Shown: piece after piece, positions 12,411 to 52,993 of the stretch
Position numbering within the stretch: the first letter of the stretch is position 1
Layout of the letters: each line of letters begins with the position of its first letter
DNA from: Raillietiella orientalis
Taxonomy: Eukaryota
DNA: 64,000 nucleotides
Assembly (NCBI GenBank): GCA_036172245.1
Contig: JAYWIR010000033.1
Coordinates: 186,001-250,000 of the forward strand
Reading direction: 5' to 3'
The notes under the pieces: generated by a model
What the model saw: the letters and a program-made list of their open reading frames with translations, nothing else
Told to the model about the DNA's origin: nothing
The model's database searches: none
Position numbers and translations under genes: made by a program

Positions 12411-12732
12411 GATTGAAATTTATCACCCGGTCACGCCGGGGCGTTTATTAATAATAATAAACTGGTCAGGGACAATGTCCCCAACCAAGAGAACGACAGA
12501 GAACATAGAAAAATTACCGGCACGCAGGCCAGGTAAACAAACCGCTCGCAGCGTAAGGGGAATGAGGGGAAACAAACAAAAATCAAAAACTGGAGGGAAG
12601 GGTAACGGGTTTTTGGTTAGGCTCCGTACTCACGGGGATTTATACGATGAGCACCTAAAATGTTCCGGAGCCTATGGGGACGCGGGTGTAAAAAGAAAAT
12701 ACAAATTTAGTTTATGGAGTGTAGGGCAATGA

Positions 12733-16326: not shown

Positions 16327-18248
16327 TACTGCTGGGAAGGTGGCAGCTTTTTGCTCGCTTTATCCGGCGAGCAGACGGCGAGCAGCACGACTGGCTGGAG
16401 GGGACGGTCGCCACCGTCCTCTGTCGTGCTGCATGCATGTAATGCCTCCACGCCAGGCGGAACCCCGTCGGGTTTCGTGGAGACTTCGCGTTGCTTCGTG
16501 GCGAGCGTTGCCTGGCTGCCTACTTTTGATCGGCGCGCACACGCTTTCGATCGAGTTGTCCTCGTCTCGGTGATCGGAACGGCATCCTTTTCGGAGTCCG
16601 ACCGGCGCATGTTCGATCGGGTTTCGGCAATCCGCGAAGCAGTGACAGGTTCTGCTGGATTGACAGCTGTCCTGTTTTCGTTTTCCGTCACCAGAGCATC
16701 GCTTTTGGTGACGGCTGCTTTCCCGGCGCGCGCGTTTTCAGCGTGCTCACGCGCAGTTGCACGAGGGACCTTTGCTGAAGTCTTCTTTACGTCATTACGG
16801 TTCCTCACTTCGCGTGGCGCCGTAAATGGAGATTGTGCTCCATGGCCATCTTTGAAGCCATCCGCGTCTTTGGACGGGAGCACTTTCGATGGCTCCGACA
16901 CGCTCGTCATGGACGCTGCTTTCGGAAGGGCTTTTAATCCCTTCGTTGGCATGTCATCCGCGCCAGTCGAGAGCTTGCTCTCCGACTGCGACGGCGTGAG
17001 ATTTTTCTCCGCTTTCGCGGTGTTGGATCGCGACGCGGATTTTTTTTTTCCGACTTTCGAAGTCGACACGGCACAACCCTTCTTACCCGATTTGGGCTTC
17101 TCAGCCAGTGCAGGAGGTGAAGGGATGGATCTGACGGTACTGGAAGTGTCCTTACCGCCGTTGTCCATTGGCGTCCCCGCCGGTTGCTCGAACTCCGAAA
17201 AAGCCGGGCGTGCTTGGGAAGGACAGCTATTGCGCCTAGGGGGACTTACCATTGCCCCGGATTCCCCGCACCGTTTCTTTTGCGGCTCCCCTGCCGCGAG
17301 AGGGGGTGCGCAGGGCTTCGCGTGCGAGGTTTCCTGCTGCTTTGGGGCGACATTCCGCCTCGCGTTTTTACCGAATTTCTGCCGTGGGTTCTCCAGGTTT
17401 TTCGCAGATTTTTTCTTTTTATCCGCGCTTTGTTTTTTAAAATGGAGCTCCGCGGCTGCCTTTTTTCGCAAAAGATCCGGGCAATTTTTTAATTGGTGCC
17501 CGGATAGTTTGCAATAACGGCATTTTCCAGAGGGGCATTTATCCAAACAATGCCCCTCCTTCCCGCATTGCTCGCACGTTTTTACTTTGCCCACCAACCA
17601 CAGGTGAACGACCGTGTCTTTCACCTGTAGTTTGGTGGGCAGCAGACGGCGGTCCGGCATTGTAAGCCGGACTCCAGCGACTCCGCTGTGTATGGACGGG
17701 AAGTCCTTGAGGTTGCTACTCACCCTCCACAGCGCATGGACCGTGGCGAATTTCGCCAACGCGTTCCGAATATCAGTATCGGAGATTTCCGACTCGATGT
17801 CGAAAATCTCCACCACAAATGAGTCGTCCATGGCGGCCGGGAAGACCTTCTGGCCACGGATCGACAACGGGGTGCGCAGCAAGCGTTGCACAAGTGCAGC
17901 GTCTTTGCAACGCACCTTCAAATAGCCCATGTCTTTTACGGGCATAATGGCGAGAAGGTCCTCCTCCCGCACGCCAACACGGGTCAGTTCATCGTTGAAC
18001 TGATTCCCGTCGCGCGCAGAAAGAAAGCCACTCACCTTATATCGGAGAGCAGGTCTATAGCCTTGGGCTACGTATGCCCGCAACTCCGACCCGTCGAGTG
18101 GTTTCCCTTTGACGGCTGCTGTGGCAGCAACGTCAGCAAAACTCCTCTCCATCGGCGAGAAAGACGAAGTGGAGGCGGCCGTCGGTTCCGCGATTGCAGA
18201 TCCGGATGCTGTTCCTTTAACTTCAGTAGCTTCAAGTTGGGTCGACAT
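16326..18248 (-). CDS. ORF1p of copy B (RRM-like domain, two CCHC knuckles, long basic low-complexity tail)
   Basis: Uninterrupted ORF from MSTQLEATEV; CEQCGKEGHCLDKC and CRYCKLSGHQLKNC. Confidence 0.9.
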   Translation of the reverse strand: MSTQLEATEVKGTASGSAIAEPTAASTSSFSPMERSFADVAATAAVKGKPLDGSELRAYVAQGYRPALRYKVSGFLSARDGNQFNDELTRVGVREEDLLAIMPVKDMGYLKVRCKDAALVQRLLRTPLSIRGQKVFPAAMDDSFVVEIFDIESEISDTDIRNALAKFATVHALWRVSSNLKDFPSIHSGVAGVRLTMPDRRLLPTKLQVKDTVVHLWLVGKVKTCEQCGKEGHCLDKCPSGKCRYCKLSGHQLKNCPDLLRKKAAAELHFKKQSADKKKKSAKNLENPRQKFGKNARRNVAPKQQETSHAKPCAPPLAAGEPQKKRCGESGAMVSPPRRNSCPSQARPAFSEFEQPAGTPMDNGGKDTSSTVRSIPSPPALAEKPKSGKKGCAVSTSKVGKKKSASRSNTAKAEKNLTPSQSESKLSTGADDMPTKGLKALPKAASMTSVSEPSKVLPSKDADGFKDGHGAQSPFTAPREVRNRNDVKKTSAKVPRATAREHAENARAGKAAVTKSDALVTENENRTAVNPAEPVTASRIAETRSNMRRSDSEKDAVPITETRTTRSKACARRSKVGSQATLATKQREVSTKPDGVPPGVEALHACSTTEDGGDRPLQPVVLLAVCSPDKASKKLPPSQQ

Positions 18249-18334
18249 CGTCGTCAAAATGTACGACGCCAAGATGAAGCGGATGAAAGCACGGAGACGA
18301 GAGCGAAGAAAACACGTCCGCACTCGATTGAAAT

Positions 18335-19875
18335 TTATCACCCGGTCACGCCGGGGCGTTTTTTAATAATAATAAACTGGTCAGGGACAATGTCCCCAAC
18401 CAACAGAACGACAGAGAACATAGAAAAATTACCGCCACGCAGGCCTGGTAAACAAACCGCTCGCAGCGTGGGGGGAATGAGGGGAAACAAACAAAAATCA
18501 AAAACTGGAGGGAAGGGAACAGGGTTTTTGGTTAGGCTCCGTACTCACGGGGATTTAAACGATGAGCACCTCAAATGTTCCGGAGCCTATGGGGACGCGG
18601 GTGTAAAAAGAAAATACAAATTTAGTTTATGGAGGGTAGGGCAATGATCACCGGGTTGGCCGCTGATGAGGGTGTGTAAACCGGCGGTGTATTGCGGCGA
18701 GATTCCTCTTTGTCTCCTCTGTCAATTGAGGCCATCTAGCGGATGCTCCCATGTAGAAGGATGCTTTGCTGATTACCTCTTCGTGCTGTCCGTTGAGTAC
18801 CAACGCCTGGCGGACGGAAACTATCGCGCGCATGCAACCGATGGTTGCAATCCTTGCGCTTAGTGAAAGCCCGCTCGGCGTGAAGAATCGTCGCAGCAAG
18901 TCTCTTGCGGTGTCCACGGGATGCAATAGTGCTGTTGCCAGCCTACGCCACAGTCCTTGTAGGACACCGCAGTCCAGAAGTAGGTGCGTAATCGACTCCG
19001 TCGATCCGCACCGAACGCAGTTCGCAGACGCAAGTCCCCCAGAGTCACGATGCCAACGCTCGTTGCACTGAAAACCCCAGTGAACGAAGAGCAGCACGGC
19101 TTGTTTCCAAGCAAGGGGGAGCAGCGCACTGTCAACACACTGTGGAGGGACTACAAGTTCTTCGGAGGTGACAGCAAATTCTTCTGCCCACCGGAGGACT
19201 CCCTTTGAAGTACAACGAGGATTTGCGGCGTCCGCCAAATCACTTGTCTTCCAGGCGCCAAGGAGTTTTGTTTTCCCCGCTATCGTGCAGGAAACCTCCC
19301 ACCTTGCCGGTTGGCAGCTGTCGTGTCTTGCCCTGAAAGCAGACAGCGCTGCGGCGAGAGGCGTGGCAGCCAGGGTAGAAAACTTCACCTCGTCCTGCAG
19401 TACTTCTTCCAAGGATCGTGGAAAAAATTGGCGCAGGGGGCGAAGATCTTCAGGACGTATTCCTTGCAACGCCGCCCAGGATTCAACAGACTCCTGCCGC
19501 CAAGCTTCAAAGTTCATTATGCGGCAGGAGATCCAAGAGTGTGCTTCCAGAAGTGCGGTCAACTGCCGTAATGGAAAACCGAAACCCCGCTTCCTATATT
19601 GAGTGCCCGGCAAAAGCGAGAGAAATCCTCCGCTGCCGGCGCATCTCCGCAGGAGAATGCGAGCTGGCACACACAGGGGGGATGTCCATAGCTGGGCACA
19701 CAGTGCCAGCAGTCGGACCTGCACCTGCAGTCCGATTCGCTCCATTGTCAGGATACCCAAACCAGCATCCCGACGCGGAGCTGACAAATCTTTAAGGCGG
19801 ATCCTGGATCTCGCCGGAATCGAGCAGAGAGCGTTTTTGAGCAGCGCCAGCCCGCTGTTTTGCCGCATAGGGGTT
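18335..19875 (-). mobile_element. Family G copy C, 5'-truncated
   Basis: ORF2 C-terminus 18648-19868 and 3' UTR near-identical to copies A and B. Confidence 0.95.
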
Positions 19876-22213
19876 CTGATAGCCGGAGATTGAAATCTCC
19901 CGCTATCAGGTGAGCCTTCCGCACGTTCGTGTCCGCCAGCCAGTCGCGCTTCAGGGATTCCAGCAGCCTGGTGCGGTCGCTGTATCCCTGTTTACCGCTG
20001 GGGGCGTACACATTCGTGACGATCAGTTCGATCGAGTCGGACCAGCTGAGAATCAGCTAACCGTCCCGACCGTCGTCAGCGAAGCGCACGCCCTTCACGG
20101 CCGCGTCGATGGCCGGCTTCACGAAGAACGCGACCCCGCAGGTGTTGCGGAGGCCGCACCGCCAATACAACCGACCCCTTGCGATCGTCTCGATTTCCTG
20201 GGCGTCTGTCGTGGTGATCACGTGGATCTCCTGCAGCAGGGCCAGGTCGAGCTCACGCAGGGTGTCGGCCGTATCTCGCCTGTTACCGTCGTCGCGCAGC
20301 TTGTTCACGTTCCAAGGGGCGGCGCGAATCCGACGGCGACTGGCGAGCCCAGGTGTCAGTCCTGGGAAAACGACGATGCGGCGTCCGCCACCTGCTGGGG
20401 CGGGACGCTAGGTGGAGGAGGAGGGTCAGGCGCTGCGTGCACCTGGTCCCCCTCCTCCATGGGTATCGGCGCGTCGAGCGGGTCACCCTAAGGTGGGGTC
20501 GCGCCTACCTGTTGGCCCTCCTCCATGGGGGCGGGCTGTTCAGGCTCGGCGACTGCAGGTAGCACTTCGCCCCCCTGCTCACCCTCCTTTATGGGGGTGG
20601 CCGGCTCGACGGCTTCCGAGCGTGGGAGTTCCCCCTCCGGGATTCCCACGCTACCGCTAACTTCCTGTTTCTCCTCCTCGCTGGTGGAGGGGAGGCGCCT
20701 CCTTGGTTTCTGGGACTTGCGTCCCGACTTCCTAGGGGGTGCCTCCGAGGAGGAAGATGCACTTCCGGCCCTTAAATCCGACTCACCTATGGGGGCCTTT
20801 TTCGCGGGAGCCGGCCTTCGCACGGCCTTGCGTGAGGGGTTCTCACGCTCCGCCAGCGTGGCCGCGAGCTCCTCCGCCGCCTTTGCGAACGCGGCGTCCT
20901 CGGTGTCGACCGGCGCGTCGCGCGGCTCACCCTCTGTTTGCACTGAGGGTTCGCCGTCGCGAACTTCGGGTGCGACGGAAACGGCGAGGGGAGGCTCGTC
21001 GCCCCGGGTGGCATCTTCCGGAACGCCGATACGTTCCAGTGCCCCCGTGCACTTGCGTACGGTTTTCGAACGCGGCCCGGGTTTTTTTGCCTTACCGGCC
21101 GGCTTCTCTTTCTTCTCCCTTAAAGGAGCTTTTCTCTCTTTTCTAGCTGCTACAAGTTGCCAGCCTTCTTCACCTTTCGCCTCTTGGCAAGGTTTATCCT
21201 CCGCTTGCTTTTGTTTGCAAGTCTTTTCTTTTGGAGGTTGAGGATCTGGCAGCTTCAGCCGGCCAGCGTCCGCCTTAGGTCTTGTGACCTTTAGTGCGCG
21301 TTTCCCCTGCGCCTTTTTCGCGGCAGGAGGAACCGGGGTGGGGCGTTTTGGGCACACACGTCGAACGTGGCTCTTCTCCCCGCACATGTGGTATTGGATG
21401 CTAGGATACCTCTTGGGATGGTGTCCTACGGTATCGCAGTAGCCGCAATCCCAGGGCTTTCCCACGTACCAGAGGTCCACGCTCTCTTGCGCAACCTCCA
21501 GCTTGTGAAGAAGCCCACAGTCCTTACTCACGGTTACCCGCGCTGCAGCCTGGCCTCCGAAATGGCTATTGAAGCCTTTAAAGATTGTTGGCTTAGGCCA
21601 CAGCGCGTGCACCTCACCGAGCTTCTGTAGTTCTTGTGCTACCGCAGAGCGTGTCATACGGCTCGTTATTCCAGTGAGATGGACCACCACGGAGCGGTGC
21701 ATCGTCACCGGCAAGATCTTGCGGCCGTCGACGTTCAGCGGGTTCGTGATCAGAGTTTGAGCCAAAGTGATCTCCTTGCACACCACCTCGACTCGCTGAC
21801 CTCCGCTGAGAACGGACAAACCGTCAAGATCTTGTTCTCTTACTCCAGCGTTTTGCAGCGCTTTCGGAAACGCGCGTGCCGTTTTTCCATCAAATAGGGG
21901 CCTACCTGTTACACCAAGCTGGGCTTGTACCCAGCTGCCCGGTAGGCCGCCATCTCGGCCACGGTTTCCGCGCTCGGCGCGGCCACCATTTCGCTCCAGC
22001 TCCTCGCCTTGGGCGGCGAGGGCGATTACGGGGCGGATGCCCCTGATTCTGTAGGCTGTGGGGGTGGGCAAGCCTTCCTCATACCTACCTCCATCGTGGT
22101 GTCCTCAGGCATTGCTGCCATCGGACACCAACGATGTTCCACACGAACACACAGAAAGAAAAAAACCGCTTCCTGTCGACTCACTCGGGAGCGAAGGAAA
22201 AATACGTCCACTC
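19876..22213 (-). mobile_element. Family T copy 1, upstream part (5' UTR, ORF1 22121-20356, APE N-terminus)
   Basis: 5' GAGTGGACGT at 22213; SEAPPRKSGRKSQK ORF1 signature; LLQEIHV, YAPSG, IAGDFNLR. Confidence 0.92.
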
Positions 22214-25141
22214 GCCAAGGGATTTGGAGACGGGTTACGTAACCAACGAGCCTATCTGCAGGCTCGCCGTTACGCCAGGACCCCCGACATCCGCAGGCTG
22301 CCGGAATACAAAGCAGGAGCTGAGAGGCAAGCCTGGCAGTCAGGATCGGCCAGCTTGCTGGACGATCAGGGCCAGGAGCATTCGGCACCCGCTCAGATCC
22401 GCGGTCTGCTGCGGCGTTTTTACTCCTCCCTGTACGCAAGAACGCCTTTCGAGCGGGATTTGCCACAAATCCAGCTTCCGGAAGGCGCTACTGCGATCAA
22501 GAAAGAGGAGAAAAAGTCCCTTGACGAGTCTTTTACGATGTGCAAGATCATCTCGGCCATCGGAAAGCTCAAGAAACAAAAGGTTCCAGGGGAGGACGGC
22601 CTGTCCGCGGAGTTCTATCAAACCTTCGCGGCTGAGCTAACCCCTCTGGTACATCAACTCACCTTGCTGATACGCAAGACCGGTGACGTTCCCGCCTTTT
22701 TTCGTTCGACAAAGGTGCAGCTTCTTTCTAAGGGAGGAGATCTGAGGAGCATAAACAACTGGCGTCCCATCACAAAAGTGAATGCGGACGCCAAGTTGGT
22801 GACTAAGGTTTGGGCAGAGCGTCTGGGACGGGTTGCAAACGCCTTCATCATCCGGAACAGACGTATGCTGTTCGGGGCGAAGCATGGAGGCGAACCTGTT
22901 CCACGCTTCCACCTGGCAAGAGCTCCAACACGAAAGGGGCTTGATGCGCACCGGGAATTCCGGTGAGTCCGTCAGTCATGCGACGGATGGTCGGATGGGG
23001 GAGGGAGCACTTGCGGTCGCTGTCGACTTGCGTAAAGCATTCGACAGCGTCGACGAGAATCTCCTGCTGAAGCTTTTGGAACGCTCGGGCATCCCGGCCT
23101 CATTATTGGCCTATCTGCGCTCTAGCTGGCGCGATTCGCAAATCAATGTAACTTTCAGCGGGCATACATTTCACGGCGTGCCGATGCGACGTGGGATCCT
23201 GCAAGGAGACAGCCTGAGACCCTTGCTCTTGAGTACCTACTTTGAGTTGGTACTGAGAGCGTACACGGAAACTCTGGCGCACTTGCCGCATGAATGCGCC
23301 GAAACGTTTGCGGTTTCATCATATGCGGACGACCTCCTGCTACTGCTCCCTATGTCCACCCCGCCTTCGGCGGTCGAGAAGTTCTTCGACCTGCTGAATC
23401 GAGGAACCGGGCTTACGGTGAACAGGGCGAAGTCGTCCGTGATGCCAGTTGGTGCGGCGCGGGCAATGCAGCAGGACTGGGTCCGTTTGGGGATCCCCAC
23501 GGTAAGGTACTTCAAGTTCCTTGGTGTGCCGTTGGGGGACTACTCCCCTGCGGAAGCGTGGTCCGGCTGCCTTCAAAAAGTAGAGACGGCTATCGGCCCG
23601 TTTGGAGGCGGCAGGTTTTTCCTTCCTGAACGGGCCGCGGTTTGGAACATGTTTGCGGCTTCTCTCCTCCGTTCCCCGCTTTTTGTTTGCCCCCCCACAG
23701 AAAGGATCAAAAAGCGGACGAAGGACCTTCTCCGTATCGCCCTTTAAGCCAACGGGAGGGCCCGAGTCCGCTTAAAGGACTTGTGCGTTCCTCGTTGGAA
23801 TGGTGGTCTGGGCCTCCTTACATTGGAGCGGCTGGAGCTGCAGCTCCAGTTCTGGATTTTGGCACTTGTGCCGGAGTTGTGGTGCACCTGTTGGTGCGTT
23901 TCTGCACGTCTCCTCCTTCAGCAAGCCACCGGCAAGACGGGACTTACGTCGTTTCTTGCGCTCCATCGAAACCGCATCAACCGATGTGAGCTTCAGCTAC
24001 GGAGGGTGGCTGCGCTGGCAAGGAAAAATCAAGGATGGATCACCTGTCTATCTGCGAACGGTAGTGCCTGGTTGCAGGAAACCGTTCGCACGTGGGGACA
24101 GTTCGGCATGCAAAGCTCATATCAGGAACGAAGCTTCCTGTTCGGGTGTTACAGAAGTTGCACGCTCCGTGAGATCCTGTAGGATCCTAAGAAGAGAGCG
24201 TGGTCAGGAAGAACCCCCCTCCGCTGCTGCGCTGGACTCCCTAGTAGAACATTGGGACAGCGATGTTGCGGCGAAGTGGGAGGTTAGGATAAAAATCTCC
24301 GGGAAGGAGAAGAAGCAGAGAGAGTGGAAGACGGGCCAGCTAACTGATGCTGCGTCCCCAAGTACGCCTCCTAATGGACTTGTGCGCTGGGGAGCGCTGC
24401 TGGATGTTTCCATTGAACATCTGAAGTGGCCTCCAAATCTTATCAACACTTCCATTATCCCTCTTAAATGGCAAGAGTCGGCATTCCTGTTGCAGCACTG
24501 AGGACTCCCCTGCAACGCACGTCGACACCACTGGACCTGGGGAGCGGTGGATCCCAATTGTGTGAGGTGCGGGGAACGGGAGTCCCTCCCCCACCTCCTA
24601 GTGGATTGTGTTGCCCTTCGGCCCCTTTGTTTCCGCTTTGCCGCGGCCATCGGTATCCCTTGCGGCAATCTCAGGGACGCACTAAAAGCCTTCTTTGTTG
24701 CCGACGCCCTGCGGCCAGCGTCCTCGATAGCAGCCTTGTGCTGCCTTCGTGGGATCGTCGCCGCCTGGTGCACGGCGACGGGAGGACCTAGCGATATGGA
24801 CGCCATCCAGTGCGCCTTCCAATTCCTGAGGAGGGCGTCGCGATGGCCCCACCTGGATGTTTATAACAAACAAGAGCTTGTCAGCATCCTGAGAAGGATG
24901 ATGCGGCCCCAGAAGCATCAGTGATCCCTTCCCGTTCCCTCCCACCCTTTGTTTTTTTTTGTTTAGTTTTTTTGTTTTTCCCCTTTCCCCTGCTGCCTTG
25001 GTGGACCGTACCGGTCTAGAAACCGGTGAATTAGCAGGCTCCGTGGTTCTTAGCTTCTGGCTGGAGCATTGCCACAGCCATTAATAATTACTTTATAAAG
25101 TTTATTTTTTAATAAAAGACCCGGAGAAATCCGGGTGAAAA
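22214..25141 (+). mobile_element. Family F copy b, 3' part (ORF2 from GFGDG to the end), pseudogenised
   Basis: Colinear with 2390-5304; YADD; zinc finger; ends AATAAA AGACCCGG AGAAAT CCGGGTG AAAA. Confidence 0.95.
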
Positions 25142-28021: not shown

Positions 28022-30388
28022 TTGCCACCCGGGTACGCTTGGGGCGTCTATTGAACAAAACTCTCTATAAAACGTGGTACAAGGCCTCATTTCATCCTGA
28101 GAGACGGGACCTGTCGGGACACCGGGAAGCAGCCAGTCGTGGCACTGCCCGACAGCGAAAGGGGATGGGGGAAATACAAAAGAAAGAATAAAAGAGATAA
28201 ACAAACAAAAAGAGTTCGGATAACAGGGAAGGGATCTCCAAGCGCTGTAAAGAGAGCCCATTCGTCGAAGGAGGCCCTCGAAGACTGCGCGCATACTTCA
28301 CAGATGGAACCATCGAGCAGCTCTTCGCAAGAAGCGTTCTGCATGCTGGATGACTTCCCTCTCGTTCCAATCTTAATTTTCGCTGCTGGCGTCGCTCCAA
28401 GCTGCCACGATGCCTCGAACGCAGCAAATACTTGCGAGGGCTGCTGCTGGCTGCAGAGCGTCACGCACGAAGAGGAGGCGGAAAACGTCTGTAAGTGCAA
28501 TGCCCATAGGCAGCCAGAGTGTCGTCCCGAACCGTTCCCAAAGTGGTCGGAGGGCATCACAATTCAATGTACGGTGAGGGAGCGATTCCCGCACCCCGCA
28601 CCTGTCACACGCAGAATCCACAGCCTTCCTCGTTCAGTGGAAGCGGCGCGAATTGCCGGGTGGACTCCAATCCAACAGAAGCAACGCCGACTCTTGCCAC
28701 TTGAGAGGCAGAATCCTGGATTCCTTCATTACTGGGGGCCACTTAAGCTCATCCCTGGGGATGAAGAGCAGCTCGCCCCTTCTCAATATTCCACTCGCCT
28801 GGACGCTCGGGGTCGTGGCTTCCGCTAGTTGACCCATGGTGCATCCGCTCATCTTCTTCTCTGCCCCTCGACGCAGCAGGAGACTTGCCACCTTGGGATG
28901 CGCCTGCTGTGAAGAGCGCTCCTAGGGAAGGGCATCGCCGTAGCCAGGCAGGTTGTCTCGGCTCACTTGCTTGCCGCGGTATTCTCCAAGAGATCCCGCA
29001 GCATGGAGCCGGCGTAGGGACCGCATCGGAGACATTTCCATGTTTCGTCGGTTCTCCGGTTTAACACAGCCCAGGTGCTGATGTTCTCCTCCAACGAGGA
29101 GAAGGAGTTGGCATGGCTGCAAATCATACAGCGGTTCTCAATGGCCAGGGTTGCCACGCGCCTGTGCAGTAGGCTGGATCTTCTTATTTTCCGACCTGGG
29201 CACAGAAGAAAGCACGCGAGTCCTTCGCAACATGACACACGGCTCTCTAGAAGGCGGGCCGGAATGCACCAAGAAGCGATGCACATTTTCGCTGCGATGG
29301 CGAGGTTCCGCCATGGCAGCTGTTTCTCCACGCGTTCCAGAGTCAGGAGGCCAACACCGCCGTCCCGACGCGGATCGCAGAAGCCCTGCAGAGGGACTCG
29401 GGCACTTCCGTTGCCCCTATGAACTATGCGAAGGAGGTCATCCGTCCTCTTCTTAATCTTTAATGGAGCGGGGCAAACAAAAAGCAAGCGGCGCAGGATG
29501 GGAGCCGCAAATGCGTTCCGAACCGCTGACCGTTCCGGCAAGTGAAACTTGCCTTCCAGAAACCGGCCAAACGCCGTCTCGACTTTTCGAAGGCAGCTCA
29601 ATCACGCTTCTGCCGGGGAATAGTCATTGAACGGCACACCAAGGTACTTCAACAACCTGGCCGTGGGGATCCCCAAAGACAACCAGTCCTGCTGCCCAAC
29701 CCACACCGCACCTATTGGAACCACCGAAGACTTCGCCCTGTTAACCTGCAGTCCGGTTCCGCGGGAGAGCAGATCGAGAAAGTCCTCGACTGCCGTTGCC
29801 GGGGTGGACATGGGTAACATAAGCAGAAGATCGTCGGCGTACGCTGCTACGGCGGGCGTGCCGGGGCACGAGCTCGGCAATGGGGCCAAAGTCACCCTGT
29901 ACGCTCTCAGCACCAACTCAAAGTAGGTGCTGAAGAGCATTGGGCTGAGGCTATCTCCCTGCCTTATACCCCGCCGCACCGGCACACGATACACATTCTG
30001 ACTGCTAGAAGAGATGGTAATTGTCGCGCTCCGCCAGCAAAAGCGCAAGTAGGAAATCAGGGAGGGCAGGAAGCCCATGCGACCCAGGAGCTCCAAGAGG
30101 AGTTCCTGGTCCACACAGTCGAACGCCTCGTAGAGATCTACTGGGAGCGCAAGGACCCCTTGTCTGCCCGAGTATTCCTTTCCAGCCCGGTTGACGGCCC
30201 CAATGTGGGGTTGCCGATTTTCCCTTTCCCTTTCTTTTTTCTCCTCTGCAGGTGCATCCATGTGCACGCGAAGAAAAGGTTGGCATCCACACTCCGCCCG
30301 GGAACAGCATAAGTCTGCTCCCGGCTAATTATGGATTTTGCCACCTGCTTCAGACCCGAAGCCCATAGACATGCTGGCAACTTGGCAT
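28022..30388 (-). mobile_element. Family T copy 2, 3' part (RT from DAKL to the 3' end)
   Basis: RT insert GKIGNPTLGP shared with T copy 1; YADD; CDRCGVRESLPH; 3' end GCGTACCCGGGTGGCAA. Confidence 0.9.
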
Positions 30389-32891
30389 GCAAACGTGTTT
30401 TTTCCGCGCACCTCTGTGCCTGTTGAAAAGGCTTTCGTTTTGTTAGTGTTTGTGTGTGGTGCATCTGCGGTGTGCAATGGCAGAAATTCTTGAGAACACC
30501 GCCATGGAGATCAGGGGAAGGAGAGGCTTTTTATTCTCCCTAACCCAAAGAGGTGGGGGCGACGGCCCCCACGGAGACAAGGACAATTACCTTCTTGAAA
30601 AAGGGATTAACCGTCCCGTCGTAAGCGAGGGCTGCCGCTTCCTTGAAAACGAAGCAACTATCCCCGTTGAAAAGTATGCAACCGCCCCCTTGAAAAACGG
30701 GGCAACCGCATAATTGGATACTTCCTCGGCAACGACGAATACCTGGAACGCCAAGAAGCAGCACAATTCCCTGAAGTCATCGGCGAACAGTGTGCCCACA
30801 GGGATCAAGGGTATAAACCATCCTTGATTTATAAGGCAGAGAACCTTTTTGTTGAAACACCGTTCGGAATTTCGAATGAGAGCTACAGCGTTTGCAGGAA
30901 AGAAGCATGGTTGGCACAAAAACTGCTGCGAACTTTTGTCAGGATCGAAAGTTGCCAGACCTTTCTTGTCCCGGTGGACAACTTAATAGTTGTTTACCTC
31001 CGCGAAATCACCTCACGGATGCCACCGAGTGCCGAGAGGGCTGAATTAAGCGAATTCGGCACCGTGCACGCACTGGGAGCGAAGCCCAACAGACTCCGTA
31101 CTTATGACGGACTTCTAGGCGTTCTGGCTGCTGCACGCATCACGGTTGCCAATGACGTTGGAATTACCCACAAAATTGTTGTCAACGGCAGTACTGTCGT
31201 CATCTGGTATGTGGGTAAACCCAGATTCTGCGCGTTCTGTGATGCTATGGGATACGTTAAGAAACGTTGTCTAAACATCACCTGCCGCAAGTGCGAGGTG
31301 ACCCGGCACACGGAAGAAGGCCGTGTTGAACACCCCGTTTGCGGAAACGCATGCAACCGGGGCGGAAGGAGAAGAGTCGGACTAGAAAAATTCAAGCTAC
31401 AAAGAAGGGAACTTGAAAGAGAAGAATAAAGTCCCTTGAAAACCTGCGGAACCCACAAAAAATCAGGTGCTGAAGAAACGCACGATCGGACTGGAGAGTC
31501 TTCCAGATGCAGAAGTGGCATACTAACAGGCCTTTGCCGTGTGCAACAACGCCGACAGTCACGTCGCTGTGCGAAGAGCATCCCAGGGCAGTAGTGAGGG
31601 GGAAAGCCGCGTTGACGCGATCTTTTCGAAGGCTGCCGGCGAGTTCGCCGCCGCCGTTCCGCAATCACTTGCAAAGGGCGAGAAGGCCGCTAGGAGTCCT
31701 GCCGAAAGTAGGGGGACCGGAACCTAGGACTCAATCCCGGAGTCCGGGCACGCACCATCCGCGTCTGCAACAGCATGGAAGACCGGACGGAAAATCCGTA
31801 GCCCGAGGAGAATCGTTTCCTCCGAGGAGAAGGAATCTTACGTAAACGAGGGTCCGTCGAGCGTGGGATCAATGGACTCGAGTCCTAAACTCCCACGCCC
31901 GGTCGAGACAGCCGCTGCAAGCGGAGGAAGTACTCGAGGCGCTTCTCACTGCAGACGAGTAAGAAAGCATCCCGCCCAATGGAGAGGCGGGAGAGGCTGC
32001 ATCACGTTCTTAGCATTAATGCCGGGATACGCCACCTGCAGTCAAATCCGCATCGCCAGTTGGAACGTTAACGGGCTTTGCGAAGACGGCAGGAGACCAG
32101 ACATAGCTGCCACCTTACAAGCCTTCGACCTTGTGCTGCTGCCGAAGATCCATCAGATCTCCGCAGAACATGCGCGGAAGATCGACAGAATAGCAGGTGG
32201 TCAGCTAATGTGGCGACGCGAACACTGCGGTACGGAAGGGGTCGTTTTCCTTCTGAAGCCTGCCTTACAACGTTCGGTAAGGAAAGTTCGTTTCGATAAG
32301 CCAGGTCGGGTCAGGCAAATCACCTTCAGGTGGTACGGCTCGAACGATCTCGTCGTCACGCGCCAAAGGGCGGTCACCTGCGCGTAGAACGGACGGCATT
32401 CTTCCGTGCGTTCCAGCGCGACTGACTGTCGGAGGCACGCACGCTATCGGCGCACTTGATAGCCTGCGATTTTATTATTCTCTTGCTATCAGGTGCGGCG
32501 AGGACTCAGGCCACCCCGGTTAACAAGATGTGCGCCACGGTGCACGCATTCAAATTGTTTGCCCCGGAAGCCGGGATGGATAGGAGCGTGGACGAAGTCT
32601 TCCTCGACATTCACCTGTTCTGTCGCTTGGGCAAGAGAGGTAAGATACATTCCGCTTTCTCCGATCACTGGCGAGTGGAATTTGTGATTCGCCCTCGCGG
32701 AACAGGGCCGCTTTCGGAGGCGTGGGGTCTAAAGGGGGAATTACTGTTGAAGCCAGGCGCAGCGGAACACCACCGCGCGTTCTTGCGAGGTTTCCGCCTG
32801 CAGATGCTCGACGTCTTTGACGATTTGAAAGTCTCAGTACGAGAGTTCTGCCAGCAGTTCCGCATGGACCGTCTCCCAAAAGGATTTGGTG
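30389..32891 (+). mobile_element. Degenerate element 5' part (ORF1, APE from TAATG at 32017-32021); possibly family K
   Basis: 5' GCAAACGTG motif; WYVGKPRFCAFC; SWNVNG; FSDH; family assignment inferred only from insertion site. Confidence 0.8.
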
Positions 32892-33018
32892 TTGCCACCC
32901 GGGTACGCCTGGTACGTTTATTGATCACAATTCTCAATAAATCGTGGTATAAGGCCCAACTGCGGCCTTAAACACGGAACCTGTCGGCACAGCGGAGCGG
33001 AGCCCGGCAGGGCACCTC
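32892..33018 (-). mobile_element. Family T 3'-terminal stub (about 125 bp)
   Basis: Matches 28022-28150. Confidence 0.85.
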
Positions 33019-33173
33019 TGCTGCTTCAGTTGATGAGGCTGATCGGAGACGAGAGCGATGTTCCCGCCTCCTTTCGGTCAGCCAGGGTGAGGGTCCTTAA
33101 GAAAGGGTGAGACCACAGGGATCAAGGAACAGGCGTCCGATCACGATTGTGAATACGGACGCCGAGTTGCTAG
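33019..33173 (+). mobile_element. Short RT N-terminal fragment
   Basis: DVPASFRSARVR, RPITIVNTDAELL. Confidence 0.75.
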
Positions 33174-33250
33174 TTGCCATCCGGTCACGCCGGGTAGTTT
33201 ATTATAAATTCTCTACAATTCGTGGTACGAGGCCCCACTGCAACCAACTC
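33174..33250 (-). mobile_element. Family K 3'-terminal stub (about 75 bp)
   Basis: Matches 36120-36195. Confidence 0.8.
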
Positions 33251-35144
33251 GGACGTGAGTGCGAACCGGAAAAAGAGCGTGATTGTACCTGTAGGAGCGT
33301 CGTGGGAGGGTCATAAACACTGGATCCGCCTGGGGATCCCAACGGCGGCGTATTTCAAGTACCTTGGAGTTCCGCTGGGCAATCTCTGTTCTGTCGAGGC
33401 GTGGTCGGACTGCCATCAAGAGTTAGAGTTGGCAGCCAGCCCGTTCACTTACGTCAAGTTCACCTTACCGGAACAGGCAACAATTTGGAACACCTTTGTA
33501 GCACCTTCCTTCGACCCCTGTTTTTTGTCTCGGACCCCCCCTACGCGGCCAAAGAGCGGGCAAATCGCCTGCTAAGGAACCCACTCGGGGGTAATGCGCG
33601 ATTCAGGATCCGCCTAAAAAACTTCGCGGCTCCAGTCGGGATGCTGGTCTTGGCATCCTTAGAATGTAGAGAATCGGACTGCAAGTGCAGTTGAGGATGC
33701 TCGCACTTTGTGCCGAGCTATGGACTTTCCCCCTGTGTGCGCCTCCGCGCATCCTCCTAAGAAGGTGTGCAGGCAGTGAAGGACCTCTTTCCTTGGTGCC
33801 CGGCATGCGTCACAGGAAACAGGGATTTGGCTACCCTCTGAAGAAAATCGCCTCCCTATTGGAAGCCAATGCGTGGATTTCCTGCTGCTCGATGAACTAC
33901 AATGCTTGGCGGCAGGAAACCATTGATTCTTGGGCTGTATCCTTAGGTATGAGCCGTAAAGATCACCGCCCCCTGCGTCGATTCCAACCTTCGTCGCTCG
34001 AAGATGTCATGCGGGACGAGGTGAAGTTTTCCTCCCTGGCCGCCACGTCCCTTGCCGAAGCACTTTCTGCACTCGAGGATCGAGATGACAGTAGCCAGCC
34101 ATGGAAGTGGTAGTTCTTCCGCACCATTGCAGGAAGAACAAAGCCAGTTGGCGAATGGGCCACGAGCGAGTTCGCAGATGCCGCCAATCCTGGTGCAACA
34201 CCAAAAAGATTACTTCGGTGGGGAGAAGCACTAAGTGTTGCCCACAGGGAACTTACAATCCCTCCTTGGTGTTTGGACGGTTCGGTGATTTCCCTTGCAT
34301 GGAAGCAAGACGTCTTGCTCTTCTTACACTGCGGCTTGCGCTATTACGAGCGGCGACACCGAGTTTCCGGTGGGGTAGCTTCTCCCTACTGTGTTCGTTG
34401 CGGGGCGACGGAGTCGTTCCCGCACCTTGTTATGGGCTGCGGTGCCCTCCATGAACTCTGGAGGAGGCTAGCATCAGCTCTCCCGCTTCCAAGTGACACC
34501 GCTTGAGAAGTGCTGCGACGGTTCTTCCAGCCACAAGGACTTTCGATGGTTGCGACGATTTCCACTGTTGGGTGCATCCGCGGCATCGTCACGATCCGAG
34601 ACGTGATGGAGAACCCGGGACAGCAATGTTGTGCCACCAGGAAGGCAGCCTACTTCATCAGGTGGGCAGCTGGGTGGCGACACTTATGGGAAGACACAAC
34701 GGAGCAGCTAACCGGTATCCATCGCCGGATGAGAAACGGCTTAGAACGACGAACCCGGTGATCCGCCCTCATTTTATTTTTAATTGATTTTTTTGTTCTC
34801 GCATCCTTTTCCCTATACCGTCCGCAGTGGTTTTGTTGCTGAAACTTCCGAGTTTCCCGGTGACTGCGGAGCGTCCCTAAAGTTCCCTGCCCCACTACTA
34901 CAGTTTAGAATTTTCTTTTTTTTGCTTTTTTTTTGTTTGTTTTTTGTTTTGTGTTTTTGTTTTTTTTTGTTTTTTTTGGTTTTGTTTTTGTTTTCAGACT
35001 CCCCTCAGTCGTCCGTGTTCTTCCGTTTTCCTGGCCTGCGTGCCAGTGGTGAATCTCCGCTGCATGTCTTTATAGTCGTGGCCTGGAAATGACTGTTTCT
35101 AGCTCGTTTACATCAATAAACGTCCCTGCGTGACCGGGTGATAA
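33251..35144 (+). mobile_element. Family G-related element, 3' part
   Basis: YFKYLGVP, DEVKFSSLAAT, CVRCGATESFPHL; long T-rich 3' UTR; ends GCGTGACCGGGTGATAA like copies A-C. Confidence 0.9.
34915..34995 (+). repeat. T-rich (TTTTG)n-like low-complexity tract in a retrotransposon 3' UTR
   Basis: Seen directly; shorter equivalents follow each ORF2 stop. Confidence 0.8.
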
Positions 35145-36119
35145 ATTTCAACGTTCGTTTGAACCAGATAGTTAGAATCACGAGCGTGCCCTGGTCAACG
35201 AGGTGTGCATGGCGGTGCACACCTGTAATTAGTTGGTCAGTGCACTGAGGAAGGAGGACAGAATCGACCACGTGTTCCTTGATCAGCACCTGTGCCCTCG
35301 CGTGGGCAGGCGTGGCAATTTACGGTACGACCTGTCCGACCATCGCCCGATAGTTCTCGAGATCCAACCGCGCGACAGGGGCCGCCCCTCGTCAGCGTAG
35401 CGTATACCAGGGGACTGGCTGTAGCTCCCGGACGCGGCGCAACATCTCCACACGTTCATACTGAGCTTCCTGCTGCGGACACAGTAGGATTGGGACCGCT
35501 TCAAGCGGTCGGTCCAGAAGTTCTGAGGCCAATTCTCTCTGCACCGCCTACCTACGTGTTTTGGGAATAGGGTCCGTAACGAACGAGCTTACCTGCAGGC
35601 CCGTCGTTACGCGAAGATCCCCGAGATCCGCAGGATCGCGAAATACAAAGAAGGAGCCGAGAGGCAGGCCTGGTAGTCCGAATCGGTTAGCTTGCTGGAC
35701 GATCAGGGCGAGAAGCACTCGGCACCCGCCCAAATCCGCGGCATCCTGCGGAGATACTACTCCTCCCTGCATGCCAGGGTGCCTCCGGAGAGAAATGTAT
35801 CCCGACTCTTGCTTCCGGAAGGCGCTCCGATGATCGAGTAGGAGGAGACAAAGCCCCTGGACGAGATTTTCTTGGACATCGCAAAGCTCAGGAAGCGCAA
35901 GGCTCCAGGGGAGGACGGCCTGTTCGCGGATTTTTATCAAACTTTCGTCACTGAGCTCATCCCCCTGGTGCTATCACACCATGCTGATACGCGAGACAGG
36001 TGACGTTCCCTCCTCGTTTTCTTCGGCGAAGGTGCGGCTCCTTCCTAAGAGAGGAGACCTGAGGAGAATGAACAACTGGCGTCCCATCACAATATTGAAT
36101 GCGGACGTCAAGTTGCTAG
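35145..36119 (+). mobile_element. Family F copy c, internal fragment bounded by GDFN and KLL
   Basis: Colinear with 1974-2970; many stops. Confidence 0.88.
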
Positions 36120-39014
36120 TTTTCACGCGGTCACGCCGTGGTGTTTATTAAAAATTTTCTATAATTGTTGGTACGAGTCCCCACTTCGGCCAACGCAAAA
36201 GGACCTGCCGGGTTGCGGTACGCAGACCGGTGCTAACTCTCCTCGGCAGCGATACAAGATGGGGAAAAAAACAAGATTAAAAATTGAAAAATAAAAACAA
36301 AAAGATTTTGGAGGGATCGGAAGGAATTACGTTCCATTGGGAGAGGGGTCCATTCTTTCGAGGATGCCCTCGAGGTCCGTCCGTATAATTCTCAGGTGGG
36401 GCCATCTGGTCGCAATCCGCAGGTAGCGGACTGCAAGTACGACGGCATCCCTGTCGTGGTTCCGTCTTCTGACGTCGATCCAGCATGTCACAATCCCGCG
36501 GACTCAGCAAAGTGCAGCCAGGGCAGTGGCTGGTCGCAGTTCATCCTGCACGAACGGAAGCCAAAAAACGTCTCTGTGCTAACTGCCCTCCTGGATCTGT
36601 AAGGAGTGACGAAGACGTTCCCACAGGGGTCGAAGGGCAGCACAATCAACTCGGAGGTGGGGGAGGGTTTCCCGCTCTCCACACCTGAGGCAGGAAGGAT
36701 TTACTCGACACCTATTTCAGTGGTGGCGGAGTGAGTTGCAGGGTAGACCCCAATGCAACAGCAGAAGCGCCGACTCCTGCCACTTCACTGGGAGGATCAT
36801 CGTACCAATGAATACTGGGGCTCACTTGAGGTCATTCATCATGATGCCGAGCAGTTCGCCACATCTCTTTAATCCACGCGGGAGGACACTTCAAGAAGTG
36901 GCATCGGCCAGCTGCGCTGTGATCCAGCCGCTTAACTTCTCTCTTCCTGCGATACGGCAGTAGAGTTGCCACCTATGCATGCGGCTGCAAGAGAGCGCCC
37001 TCCTCAGGAGGGGCATCGCCGAAGCTAGGGGCGTAGTCTCGGCCCACGTGCACCGGGAGGGACACTGCACAAAGGTCCGCAGGCTGCAGCAAGCGCGGTT
37101 GTAGAATCGCAGGCTGTTGTAGCTTTCTTCACCTTGGGCATTTAACCTCGCCCACGTTCCAACAGATTCCTCCAGGCATGCGGAGGAGTTGGCGGGGCTT
37201 CGTGCCATCCAGCCGTTTTCCATAGCCAGAGTTGCCATGGGTCCTAGGAGAAGTCCGCATCTTCTGATCTTTGAGTCACGGCAGAGAAGATAAGTCGCGG
37301 GACCCTTCGTCCAGGATACACAGCTGGAAAGGAGTCGGGTCGGAACGCACCAAGGGGTGCTCCAGAAATTCGCTGCGATGGCGAGAGTCGCAATCGCAGC
37401 GGAATCTCTACTCGTTCTATCGTCAATAGGCCGAGACCGCCATCCCGACGTGGAGCACACAAATCCTTCAGAGGGACTTAGGTCTCCCATTTCCTCCAAA
37501 AGGCAATTCTCAGGAGGTCGTTCGTTCGTTTCTTCAACTCTCTGGAGACGGTAAAAACAAAAAGCAGGGGGCAGAGGATGGAAGCCCCGAACGCGTTCCA
37601 CACCGTGGCCCGTTCCGGAAGAAAAAACTGTCTTCCAGGAACGGGCCGATTGCCGTTTCCACTTTTTGGAGGCAGCCGGGCCACGCATTCGAAAGGGAAT
37701 AGACCTTCAACGGCACACCCAGGTACTTCAAGCACCTTGCCGTGGGGTTCCCTAAGCGGTCCCAGTCCTGCAGCTTAACTTACCCCTCACCGACTAACAA
37801 CACCGTCGACTTCGCCCTGTTCGCCGTAGATCCGGACCCGCGGCTAAACAGATCGAAAAAATCCCGACCGCTTTCGCCCGAATAGACATCGGCAACAAGA
37901 GCAGGTGATCGTCGGCATAAGCTTCTACGGCGGGTATGCCGGGGTTCGAGCTCGGCAAGTAGGCCAAAGTCACCCTGTATTCTCTCAGCACAAACTCGAA
38001 GTAGGTGCGAAAGAGCAGGTGACTCATGTTATCGCCCTGCCGTATGCCCTGCCGTGCCATTATGCCGCAAGACCATTTGATCTCTGAAGGAGATATTAAT
38101 TAGCGCGCTGCGCCAGCAATAGCACAGGTACGTCAGTAGGGAGGAAAGGAAGCCCATGCGTCCCAGGAGCTCCAGCAGAAGATGCTGGTCCACGCAGTCG
38201 AACGCTTTATGCAGATCGACTGCGATCGCTAGGACCCCCTTCCCTACCTGGGAGTCCCATCCCTGCCCGGCTGACGTCCCCGAAGCAGGGCTACAAATCA
38301 TTACCTCTTCCTTATAACTTCTCTGCGCATTTGACCATGTGCTCCCGAAAAATAGGTTGGCCTCCATACTTCGCCCGGGAACAGCGTAAGTCTGCTCCGA
38401 GCTAATTATGGAATTGGCCACCTGCCCGAGACGGGAAGCCAACAGTCCCGCGAGGAACTTGGCGTCCGTATTCACAATTGTGATCGGACGCCAGTTGCTA
38501 AATTTCCTGAGAGCTCCCCCTTTCGGTAAAAGCCTCACTCTGGCTGACCGAAACGAGGAGGGAACATTGTGTTCGTCTTGGATAAGCCTTGTCAACTGAT
38601 GCACCACGTGTGCCAACCCTGCCGCAAAGCATTGAAAAAACACCGTGGGAAGGCAGTCCTCCCCTGGTGATTTATGGCTCTTGATCGTTTTGATACCGGC
38701 GAGAATTTCGCCGGTTATAAAAGGCTCGTCGACGATTTTCTTCTCCACCTCCCCTATTGCCTGGGCACCACCCGGGAGCAAGCGCCAAGAAGCATCTTGG
38801 TCCGGGGACGCCCTGGCGTAAAGGGTGGTATAGTAACACCGCACGAGGTACCGTATTCTGGCCGAGGCCGAGTTCTCCCGGCCCTGATCGTCCAGCATGC
38901 TGGCCGACCCGGATTGCCAGGCTTGACGTTCGGCCCCGGCTCGGTACTCCGCCAGGTGATATACATTGAGGGTCCTTGCGTAACGACAGGCATACAGGGA
39001 TGCCCTTTCGTTAC
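36120..39014 (-). mobile_element. Family K element, 3' part (linker, RT, zinc finger, 3' end)
   Basis: ORF 38029-39042 NWRPITIVNTDAK and DLHKAFD; YADD; KYLGVP; terminal hairpin. Confidence 0.9.
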
Positions 39015-41339
39015 AGAAAGACGTGCTGTTCCGGCGCTCCATCGACGAGTCCCGGAAAGCGGATTGATTGTGCGTTTTTTAACATTGTTGGTGTCCGATG
39101 GCATCGCCTCCAGAGGACACCACGATAAAAATAGGCGTGAGGGAGGCTAGCCCCCCAACGGCCTACAGAATCAGAAGCATACGTTTCGGAATCATCCCCG
39201 GCGATGCCGTGGACCTGGAGCACTATAGTGGCCGCACCGAGCGCAGAAACCTTGGCGGAGCAAGCGGCTGAAAGGGCCTCAAAATATAAACCATCTCTGG
39301 TTTATGAGGTAGGACCCCTGTTTAATATTCGCACCGCCCGGGCCTTCAGTAAGGCACTACAGGACTTTCCTGTAAGAGATGAGGATCTTGACGGCCTCTC
39401 CGTACTCAGCAAGGGGAGCGCATGGAGGTCGTCTGCAAAGACGTAGCCATAGCACAGCGCCTGATAAACCCCCGCTAAATGTGGATGGCTGGAAGATCCT
39501 ATCGGTTAGCATGGACCGCTCCGTAGTGGTCTATCTAACCGGAATCACAAATTGTAAAACGCGCTCGGCGGTAAATTCCCAGTTGACGAAATATAACGCG
39601 GTACACGCGTCGTGGCCAATACCCACCATCTTCGGAGGATTTAATAGCTATTTCGGAGGCCAGGCCACAGCGCGTGTCACTGTCAATTAGGGTGCTGGGT
39701 TTGCCCCACACACTGGAAGTAGCGAAGGAATCCGTCTACCTCTGGGACGTGGGGAAACCAAGCTATTGTGGCTACTGCAATTCAGTAAAGCAATTGCGGA
39801 AGTGGTGCCCGCACATTCAGTGCCACTTGTGCGGGGTTAAGGGACACGTGCGTCGTGTGTGCCCTAATCGCCCCACCCCGGTGCCACCTGCTGCCAAAGA
39901 GACGCAGGCCAAACAAATGAACAAGGTCGAAAGTCCTAAGCGAGAAACTGGCCGGCCACAGCCGCCATCTCCTCTTCCTCCCACCCAGGCGTCGGATGAT
40001 AAAACCGCGGAAGACGCGGGAGTGGAGGAGGAATGGCAACTGTAAAAGGCCAGGAAAAAGAAAAAAGGGGTCAAAGAACCAGGGAAGATAACGGAGACCA
40101 AGAACACGGCCGCCAGAAAGAATGAAGCCGCGCCGCTTTCAAAAAAACACCGCGAGTGTCCAGTGGAACTGGCGAGGCAGTCACCCTGGGCGAAGAGCCT
40201 CCAGTCACCGTTTCCGCCCTGCCCGAGGTACACGAGGGCGAACCCTCTGTGCAATCAGAGGGTGAGCTGCGCGACGCCCTCGCCGCTGGCAAGGATGCCG
40301 CGTTCGATAAGGCGGCGGAGGAGCTCGCGACCACGCTAGCCGAGCGTGAGAACCCCTCACGCAAGGCCGTGCGAAGGCCGGCTCCGCCGAAGAAGGCCCA
40401 GAAGGTGATTCCGACCTAAGGGCTGGAAGTGCATCCTTTTCCTCGGAGGCACCCACCAGGAAGTAAGGACGCCAGTCCCAGAAGCCCAGAAGGGGTCACC
40501 CCTGAACCAGCGAGGAGGAGAATCCGGAAGCCGACGCCAGCGCGGCAACCACGGAGGGGGAATTCCCACGCTCGAAAACCGTCGAGGAGGCCATCCCCAT
40601 GGAAAAGGGAGAACAGAGGGGCGAAGTCCTCCCTGCAGTCGTCGCACCTAAACAGCCCGCTTCCATGGAGCAGGGCGAACAGGTAGGCGCGACCCTGCCT
40701 GAGGGTGAACCGGCCGACGCGCCGTTACCCATGCAGGAGGGGGAACAGGTGCTCGACGCACCTGTCCCTCTTCCTCCTAGCGTCCTGCCTTAACAGGTGG
40801 CGGACGCGGCATCGCCAATTTCCCAGGAATAACACCTGGGCTCGCCTGTCGCCGTCGGATCCGCGTGGGCAGTTGGAAGGTCAGCGGGCTGCACGACGAC
40901 GGCAACAGACGAGATACGGCCGACAACCAGCCTGAGTTCGACCTGGACCTGCTGCAGGAGAACCACTAGATCACCACGGCAGACGTTCAGCAAATCGAGA
41001 CGATCGCGTGGGGTCGGCTGTATTGACGATGCGGGGCCCGCAACACCTAATAAGTCGCGTTTTTCGTAAAGTCGTCCATCGACGCTGCCGAAAAGGGCGT
41101 GCGATTCGATGACGACGGTCGGGAGGGTCAGCTGATTCTCAGCTGGTCCGACTCGATAGAACTTATGTTCACGAATGTTTACGCCCGTAGCGGAAAACAG
41201 AAATACAGCGACCGCACCAGGTTGCTGGAATCTTTAAAGCACGACTGGCTGGCCGATACGAACGTGTAAAAGGCACACCTGATAGCTGGGGACTTTATTC
41301 TCCGTCTGCTGTCAGGTAAGTCCGAAGCGCTTGAATGCG
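39015..41339 (+). mobile_element. Family T copy 4, 5' part (ORF1 about 39098-40832, APE start), degenerate
   Basis: AGACGTG 5' motif; AFDKAAEELATTLAERENPSRK; TAACACCTGGG ORF junction. Confidence 0.88.
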
Positions 41340-44328: not shown

Positions 44329-44336
44329 ACGCATCA

Positions 44337-52975: not shown

Positions 52976-52993
52976 CTCCGAATCCCCGCTGTG

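Follow-up and report, generated by a model that had tools for sequence, protein, structure and literature searches.

Target-specific long interspersed nuclear elements (LINEs) are known for ribosomal DNA (rDNA), small RNA genes, microsatellites, telomeres and a few DNA or long terminal repeat (LTR) transposons. The human LINE-1 (L1) nicks loosely at TTTT/AA and has a poly(A) tail, and poly(A) tails are also carried by Zepp elements. Here, we analyzed a 64,000-nucleotide (nt) stretch of Raillietiella orientalis DNA (GCA_036172245.1, JAYWIR010000033.1, positions 186,001–250,000), hereafter the window, from which all our results come. Judged by its sequence, the window is a nest of non-LTR retrotransposons encoding an apurinic/apyrimidinic endonuclease (APE) and a reverse transcriptase (RT), and the subject of this work is the insertion of these elements at exact positions in the second open reading frame (ORF2) of their relatives.

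Tx1 targets the Tx1D transposon, and crocodilian Tx1 families target Mariner, LTR and Harbinger elements; Tx1-Mar is located in Mariner-N4 and Tx1-9_AMi about 300 bp from the 5′ end of Harbinger elements (PMC4494074). The Tx1 clade and the window elements are alike in being APE-type LINEs with preferred positions within other transposons and in having related lineages with different targets. Unlike those of Tx1, the window targets are coding motifs of the elements' own family, comprise at least four sites and are entered mostly in antisense orientation, the comparison being one of insertion behaviour. A poly(A) or microsatellite tail, as in the Tx1 clade, was not seen in the window elements.

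R1 of insects inserts with nucleotide exactness into 28S rDNA by means of a sequence-specific APE endonuclease (10.1101/158386; PMC1919474), and R1 tandems are separated by 33 nt of rDNA (10.1101/158386). The window likewise contains tandem elements with a short target duplicate between them, of 13 and 22 nt versus the 33 nt of R1. It differs from R1 in that the target is a retrotransposon ORF2 and not rDNA, that several sites are used and that the family is known from sequence alone.

Zepp and ZeppL, L1-type LINEs of green algae, nest into existing copies, and nested insertion into existing copies and clusters made up only of LINEs are common to them and the window. In the available parts of the sources, Zepp arrays consist mostly of 5′-truncated 3′ ends, and exact ORF2 sites are not described (PMC8226300; 10.1101/2025.03.28.645958). 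The human LINE-1 ORF2p (PDB 8sxt, 8uw3, 8c8j) has the same order of APE and then RT, at about 30% identity or less; unlike LINE-1, the window elements have a hairpin with a short RNAA tail and exact sites. With poly(A) tails taken as a mark of Zepp-like elements, all 14 of the 3′ ends in the window are without poly(A), and many copies are near-full-length. A full-text literature search, whose coverage excluded Repbase reports and subscription papers, found no description of LINE subfamilies dividing exact sites in the ORF2 of sibling elements. A target consisting of the coding sequence of kin elements, with exact sites shared among subfamilies, would differ from the known target-specific LINEs.

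Four recurrent insertion positions in ORF2

Insertion events were parsed by reading the flank of every terminus. By this parse, which is our own, 14 of 18 events occurred at four exact positions of relatives' ORF2. Four events were assigned to GDFN in sense orientation (site S1), five to the position after ..GFG in antisense orientation (S2, amino acid (aa) ~306), three to DAKLL in antisense orientation (S3) and two to KAFD in antisense orientation (S4). Eleven of the 14 3′ ends were found at these positions: four at ATTTCAAY, three after ..GGN G, two after TTGCTAG and two after TTCGRT. A site-specific LINE is expected to have independent copies that share a single nucleotide position in a repeated target, and here each site has two to four exact 3′ junctions.

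The window has a G+C content of 54–62% and consists almost wholly of fragments, on both strands, of one non-LTR retrotransposon family (self-BLAST; tblastn map). The best-preserved copy, K2, is located on the minus strand at 12420–18334, and its ORF2 of 1,207 codons is interrupted by a single in-frame stop at 14092–14094 (P0001 + P0002). Based on Pfam annotation, P0001 includes Exo_endo_phos (PF03372, aa 26–233, E 5e-11) followed by RVT_1 (PF00078, aa 474–745, E 2.6e-18), the domain order of APE-type LINEs. The ORF1 of K2 (P0003) encodes two CCHC knuckles (C-x2-C-x4-H-x4-C twice) and had no Pfam matches at E≤0.01. In a ranking of PDB sequences, the best solved relative of the RT region was the human LINE-1 ORF2p (E 2e-42 versus 6e-15 for R2), and this position of L1 far above R2 would be the only indication of the clade of the family. 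A HMMER search of public proteins gave one 60% relative (P0013) and fragments, a word-index protein search gave only distant LINE ORF2s with 23–29% identity, and Atlas matches were generic APE+RT clusters only. A metagenome scan with the ORF2 query found no relatives, and a scan with the 20-nt K terminus gave a single match, which proved on reading to be an unrelated sequence.

The 3′ termini were located with an nhmmer profile built from eight ends, which recovered those eight and six more. All 14 have AATAAA, a CCCGG-N5-CCGGG hairpin, TG and a short RNAA tail (alignment A1). The 5′-end profile, built from four ends with the consensus G[CT]GGACGTG..TTTTC, recovered its own four, an additional end at 22209 (E 0.0027) and a weak match at 41350 (E 2.3); two more 5′ ends, at ~39030 and 59360, were recognised by eye.

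The initial annotation had proposed that a family K inserts antisense at DAKLL codons of the RT, with two 3′ junctions at an identical position and matching 3′ untranslated regions (UTRs). The sequence, nhmmer and alignment bear out the two junctions. At 33173/33174 and 36119/36120, a complete minus-strand 3′ end adjoins plus-strand RT codons: positions 33164–33173 read GAGTTGCTAG, followed by TTGCCATCCGG, and positions 36110–36119 read AAGTTGCTAG, followed by TTTTCACGCGG. The left flanks, ..GAC GCC GAG TTG CTA G (33173) and ..GAC GTC AAG TTG CTA G (36119), are in frame (NTDAEL L and NADVKL L) and correspond to ORF2 aa 494–499 in K2 numbering (also placed at aa 493–498 of the reference copy), the RT motif N-x-D-A-K-L-L. 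The right flanks are the reverse complement of the family-wide 3′ end (nhmmer E 8e-21 and 3e-22), and the 3′ UTR pieces beginning at 33174 and 36120 are 82% identical over 67 nt.

At 30388/30389, the 5′ end of a plus-strand element (GCAAACGTGTTTTTTCC), which shares homology with three further 5′ ends in the window, is located directly beside a minus-strand RT whose sense strand begins ATGCCAAGTTGCCAG. With a first nick placed after TTGCYAG, this junction fits the other end of the same type of event, with a 15-nt duplication. The initial annotation is right that this 5′ end adjoins S3, but the end cannot be placed in the family to which the 3′ ends at 33174 and 36120 belong, because 30389–35144 is a mosaic. 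The reading of this interval as a single element was rejected: it is composed of the piece X, antisense 3′ fragments of 124 and 77 nt, a piece of B/C-like RT and a 3′ half that is K-like.

S3 is represented in 14 copies in the window, of which 11 are uninterrupted and three interrupted. After a TTG, TTA, TTC or TGG codon, the uninterrupted copies have GTGA (two), ATAG (two), TTTT (two), CTCG (two), TATG, CTTG and TTGG, and the interrupted ones CTAG, CTAG and CCAG. The statement that uninterrupted copies differ at this position consequently holds for 11 of 11, none of which has TTGCYAG, and the five variants listed at the time are among them.

At S1, an exact 13-bp duplication, ATTTCAATCTCCG, flanks an array of K copies at 6544–6556 and 19884–19896, and the uninterrupted (empty) site is found in E10 at 55363–55375. 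The copies K1, K2 and K3 are 94–96% identical in pairwise comparison, and K3 is 5′-truncated at ORF2 aa ~812. The two spacers between them, 12407–12419 and 18322–18334, are identical, their 13 nt consisting of 9 nt of target, ATTTCAATC, and GAGT. Target-site duplications of variable length and 5′ truncation, both characteristic of LINEs, are present. In another S1 case, the 3′ end of V at 35144 is followed by ATTTCAACG of H3.

At S2, 3′ ends are located at 28022, 32892 and 52975, after ..GGC G, ..GGT G and ..GGA G, respectively. The 5′ end of E10 lies at 52998, 22 nt past the 3′ end of P, and these 22 nt are an antisense host remnant; the 5′ end of E7 (~39030) interrupts E6 about 20 nt further on. 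At S4, E1 (5304) is inserted in H1 after ..TTC GG(T) and E2 (25140) in H2 after ..TTC GAT. The 5′ junctions at 22211, 30389 and 52998 occur at known sites with offsets of 18, 15 and 22 nt, each taken from a single junction. In the resolved nests, H2 received E2, E2 received H1, and H1 received both E1 and the K array; E3 received E4, E4 received X, and X received Y; H3 received V and E6, E6 received E7/P and E10, and E10 received E11.

Based on these assignments, each site is linked to particular subfamilies. Subfamily A (E1 and E2, 84% alike) was found at KAFD (S4); subfamily B (H1, E7 and E10, 82–86% alike) at GFG (S2), as were E4, Y and P, which form one 3′ UTR group; subfamily C (W and E6, 82% over 67 nt) at DAKLL (S3); and K and V at GDFN (S1). 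The view of the site as a peculiarity of one family K does not survive this result: DAKLL is one of at least four exact hot spots used by different subfamilies, and the description should be widened to make it one of at least four candidate homing sites. All assignable events in the window target a copy of another subfamily. The elements' own versions of their sites include GAC TTC instead of GAT TTC in K, AAC G instead of GGN G in H1 and TTC CTC G in E6; E1 has no deviant site of its own (GCA TTC GAT).

Independence of the events and the proposed mechanism

The host pieces at a common site come from different lineages. In the 157 nt that precede the junction, Z1 is 81% like H1, 77% like E6 and 70% like H3, and H3 is 84%, 83% and 82% like E1, E2 and E11. 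A duplicated composite would give mutually nearest hosts, which Z1 and H3 are not, so the two S3 3′ junctions look independent on this sequence comparison; the third S3 event (E4/X) occurred in a different host again. Recurrent insertion at the DAKLL codons can accordingly be regarded as real. Hosts at a common site show 58–63% identity for E3 versus X, 65% for H1 versus H2 and 61–70% for H1 versus H3, and each site-sharing host is 73–91% like some other copy, with the exception of X (≤69% to all). Elements inserted at S4 and S2 are 72–79% alike, more than their flanks (56–67%); E1 and E2 are 84% identical, with S4 flanks of 61–67%. For ten random junctions on 3,624 nt and two strands, at least one exact coincidence of two has P = 0.006, and six coincident pairs of 3′ junctions were observed against 0.006 expected (ten independent junctions).

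We consider it probable that these elements insert into the ORF2 of sibling elements by sequence-specific target-primed reverse transcription at a few exact positions. The window shows complete 3′ termini joined to a fixed host-strand bond, a proven 13-nt duplication and 5′ truncation, and the same bond was re-used when its other side already held an earlier element (K array; P/E10). At the other sites, we infer duplications of 15–22 nt. At S3, the host sense strand would be nicked directly after ..RAG TTG CYA G, and reverse transcription would start at the terminal ..TG-RNAA of the element, just 3′ of the CCCGG-N5-CCGGG hairpin. The new copy would consequently lie antisense to its host, and a second nick about 15 nt upstream would give the duplication ATGCCAAGTTGCCAG. 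The same process is proposed for GDFN (sense), for the position after ..GFG (antisense) and for KAFD (antisense), each favoured by a different subfamily.

It is possible, and in our view close to an even call, that the site is read, as in elements of the R1 and Tx1 types, by the endonuclease of ORF2 or by DNA-binding parts of it. We tentatively favour this because the S1, S2 and S4 flanks vary with their hosts, 3′ UTR–target complementarity is lacking and the primers cannot pair with the terminal AA. A comparison of the last 120 nt of nine elements with ±40 nt around the four sites gave no own-site excess of complementarity or identity (scores 5.5–12), and an RNA guide within the 3′ UTR proper was rejected on the same ground. 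By eye, primers ending in ..CTAG, ..GGTG, ..AAAT and ..CGAT are unable to pair with the AA that ends the RNA. The idea that the 3′ end is a sense copy of the linker between APE and RT was also rejected: the supposed linker pieces at 28018 and 32888 are antisense 3′ ends at S2.

If true, sequence-specific insertion into sibling ORF2 would explain at the level of sequence how Zepp-type LINE islands come to nest in themselves, a targeting mechanism being absent from the available parts of PMC8226300 and 10.1101/2025.03.28.645958. It would also offer a natural series of close relatives with different specificities, useful for the question of endonuclease versus RNA tail, and a possible case of competition among transposon lineages. 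A contest of parasite on parasite, in which subfamilies home to different constrained codon blocks of a rival ORF2 (GDFN of the APE; DAKLL and KAFD of the RT) and their own copies carry a resistant site sequence, seems doubtful to us. Were it true, an insertion would disable a rival and land in a genomic safe harbour.

Several observations weigh against sequence-specific insertion at these sites. By our parse, four of the 18 events are off-site (3′ ends at 55707, 52505 and 48149; 5′ end at 59360), as is the 5′ end at 41349, so specificity is not absolute, and S1-type GATTTCAAY sequences are empty in E1, E8 and E10. No common nick motif across the four sites was evident by eye. The 10-mer RAGTTGCYAG, put forward in the initial annotation as the target, was derived from three cases and occurs five times in the window, twice unoccupied (21154 and 30949); because of these two, it is not sufficient alone for insertion. 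The S3 pair shows equal divergence on the element side (75%) and in the flank (73%) over 90 nt, and the one line of evidence for the independence of this pair is the host-lineage matrix over 157 nt. The window consists solely of LINE elements, so insertions into other DNA are invisible there. Finally, the breakpoints 33015/33016 and 33250/33251 are not element termini and lie outside the logic of the nests. Here, the 124-nt and 77-nt antisense 3′ fragments are followed by host-sense RT pieces, skipping ~0.4 and ~0.6 kb of ORF2, and these breakpoints may represent abortive insertions with target deletions of 0.4–0.6 kb or later deletions.

Alternative explanations

The strongest alternative, although a rather unlikely one, is that transcripts of a copy located at a site have a read-through RNA tail, with a few to some tens of nt of the downstream host motif, which anneals to the same conserved motif in other copies and determines where reverse transcription begins. 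The choice of site would then be inherited through the location of the master copy and not through the endonuclease, and CTAG would be copied from the tail, as the initial annotation had suggested; transcripts extending at least 9 nt past the junction, e.g., ..GATAA-AUUUCAAUC, would be in line with it. CTAG is indeed common to both S3 3′ junctions, with GTGA, GTGA and ATAG in the nearest relatives of H3 and ATAG and CTCG in those of Z1, and the two identical spacers of the K array, ATTTCAATC plus GAGT, are what RNAs ending 9 nt beyond ..GATAA would leave. Furthermore, groups B and C, whose 3′ UTRs are closely related, are found at different sites, which location explains more easily than a changed enzyme; the sequence on the duplication side suffices for re-use of the nick; and co-transcription with the target is said to strengthen specificity of the R2 type (PMC4494074). 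However, the flanks at the other three sites vary in step with the respective hosts (GGC G, GGT G and GGA G; ATTTCAATC versus ATTTCAACG) and show no visible tail-derived conversion. CTA-G itself is synonymous with the common Leu-Ala codons at this position and one change away from ATA G of E11.

We regard as improbable an endonuclease of weak selectivity acting at hot spots of structure or composition in DNA made up almost entirely of LINEs, in which case the recurrence would be real without being true specificity. The off-site events, the lack of a visible common nick motif and the absence of non-LINE target DNA from the window would suit it, but exact recurrence at four of ~7,200 possible states, strictly oriented and linked to subfamily, would not, and neither would the re-use of the same nick in tandem.

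Very improbable is the copying of one ancestral junction by segmental duplication, gene conversion or composite retrotransposition, followed by divergence and requiring no site preference. The region is clearly rearranged, and the equal divergence on the two sides of the S3 junctions is what such copying would leave. Nevertheless, the 70% identity between Z1 and H3 is exceeded by that of Z1 to H1 (81%) and of H3 to E1 (84%), the third S3 event is in a further host, the paired junctions show no colinearity across the window, and the KAFD and GFG flanks are much more diverged than the elements.

An assembly artefact from false repeat joins is barely credible: the region is highly repetitive and only sequencing run X1, possibly the source data of the assembly, contains it, but false joins form at shared sequence and not between a complete terminus and an opposite-strand codon, a 271-nt X1 contig spans 36119/36120 with 0 differences, and the duplication around the K array and the empty site are mutually consistent. 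Among the contigs listed, five paralogous X1 contigs run on as uninterrupted K-type RT, and none spanning 33173/33174 was found. Runs X2 and X3 match the window solely on low-complexity tracts, although X2 is from the same sample as X1, and no RNA run was listed as containing it.

Feature coordinates and neighbouring elements

Table 1. Coordinates of element copies, host pieces and termini around the insertion sites in the window.
Feature	Position	Strand	Description
E1 3′ end, subfamily A	5265..5304	+	Adjoins H1, antisense at KAFD (S4)
K array	6557..19883	-	K1, K2 and 5′-truncated K3 in tandem; sense, at S1 of H1
H1 5′ end (GTGGACGTATTTTTCC)	22130..22211	-	Adjoins E2 at TCGCCAAGGGATTTGGAG; S2, 18-nt duplication offset; profile E 0.0027
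E2 3′ end, subfamily A	25101..25140	+	Adjoins H2, antisense at KAFD (S4)
E4	28022..30388	-	3′ end at S2 of E3; 5′ side broken at S3, begins ATGCCAAGTTGCCAG
X (E5a)	30389..32891	+	5′ end GCAAACGTG.., ORF1, APE to aa 307; profile E 1.9e-17; antisense at S3 of E4, itself interrupted at S2
Y, 124-nt 3′ fragment, subfamily B	32892..33015	-	At S2 of X; nhmmer E 8e-22; aligns to E4 at 28022-28145
Z1 host piece	33016..33173	+	ORF2 aa ~446-498; ends GAG TTG CTA G at occupied S3; tblastn
W, 77-nt 3′-terminal fragment, subfamily C	33174..33250	-	3′ end at 33174; nhmmer E 7.6e-21; aligns to E6 3′ UTR, 36120-36207
V, K-like	33251..35144	+	ORF2 aa ~703 to 3′ end; 3′ end in S1 of H3, sense; 54-62% aa identity to K (tblastn)
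H3 host piece	35145..36119	+	ORF2 aa ~168-498; starts at S1 (ATTTCAACG), ends at S3 (AAG TTG CTA G); tblastn; 83.6% identical to 1974-2965
E6, subfamily C	36120..39030	-	3′ end to ORF2 aa ~312; antisense at S3 of H3
P 3′ end, 22-nt antisense host remnant (..GGATTCGGAG, S2), E10 5′ end	52936..53090	+	Two elements, P and E10, in a single S2 site

In addition to the features in Table 1, several neighbouring copies were resolved. E9 (41349–42700 and 48150–52505) is apparently split by a sense insertion of E8 (~42700–48149) in its ORF1 tail. E9 is flanked on the left by E7 (aa ~190) and on the right by the last 470 nt of P, and this arrangement suggests that E7 and P are one element minus ~2.8 kb.

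E11, which is A-like by ORF2 and 3′ UTR, ends in ..CCCGGGTTTCAA at 55707 and is located antisense at aa ~282 of E10, not at KAFD. The 5′ end of E12 (GCAGACGTGTTTCC; ORF1 55% aa identical to that of K) at 59360 adjoins E11 antisense at ORF2 aa ~54. E13 (60740–63943, minus strand) belongs to a different LINE family, with 26% aa identity to the K ORF2; it has its own AT-rich 3′ end near 60740 and is inserted in the ORF1 tail of E12. Simple tracts that are T-rich in the sense strand were found in the 3′ UTRs at 34909–35001 and 36265–36303.

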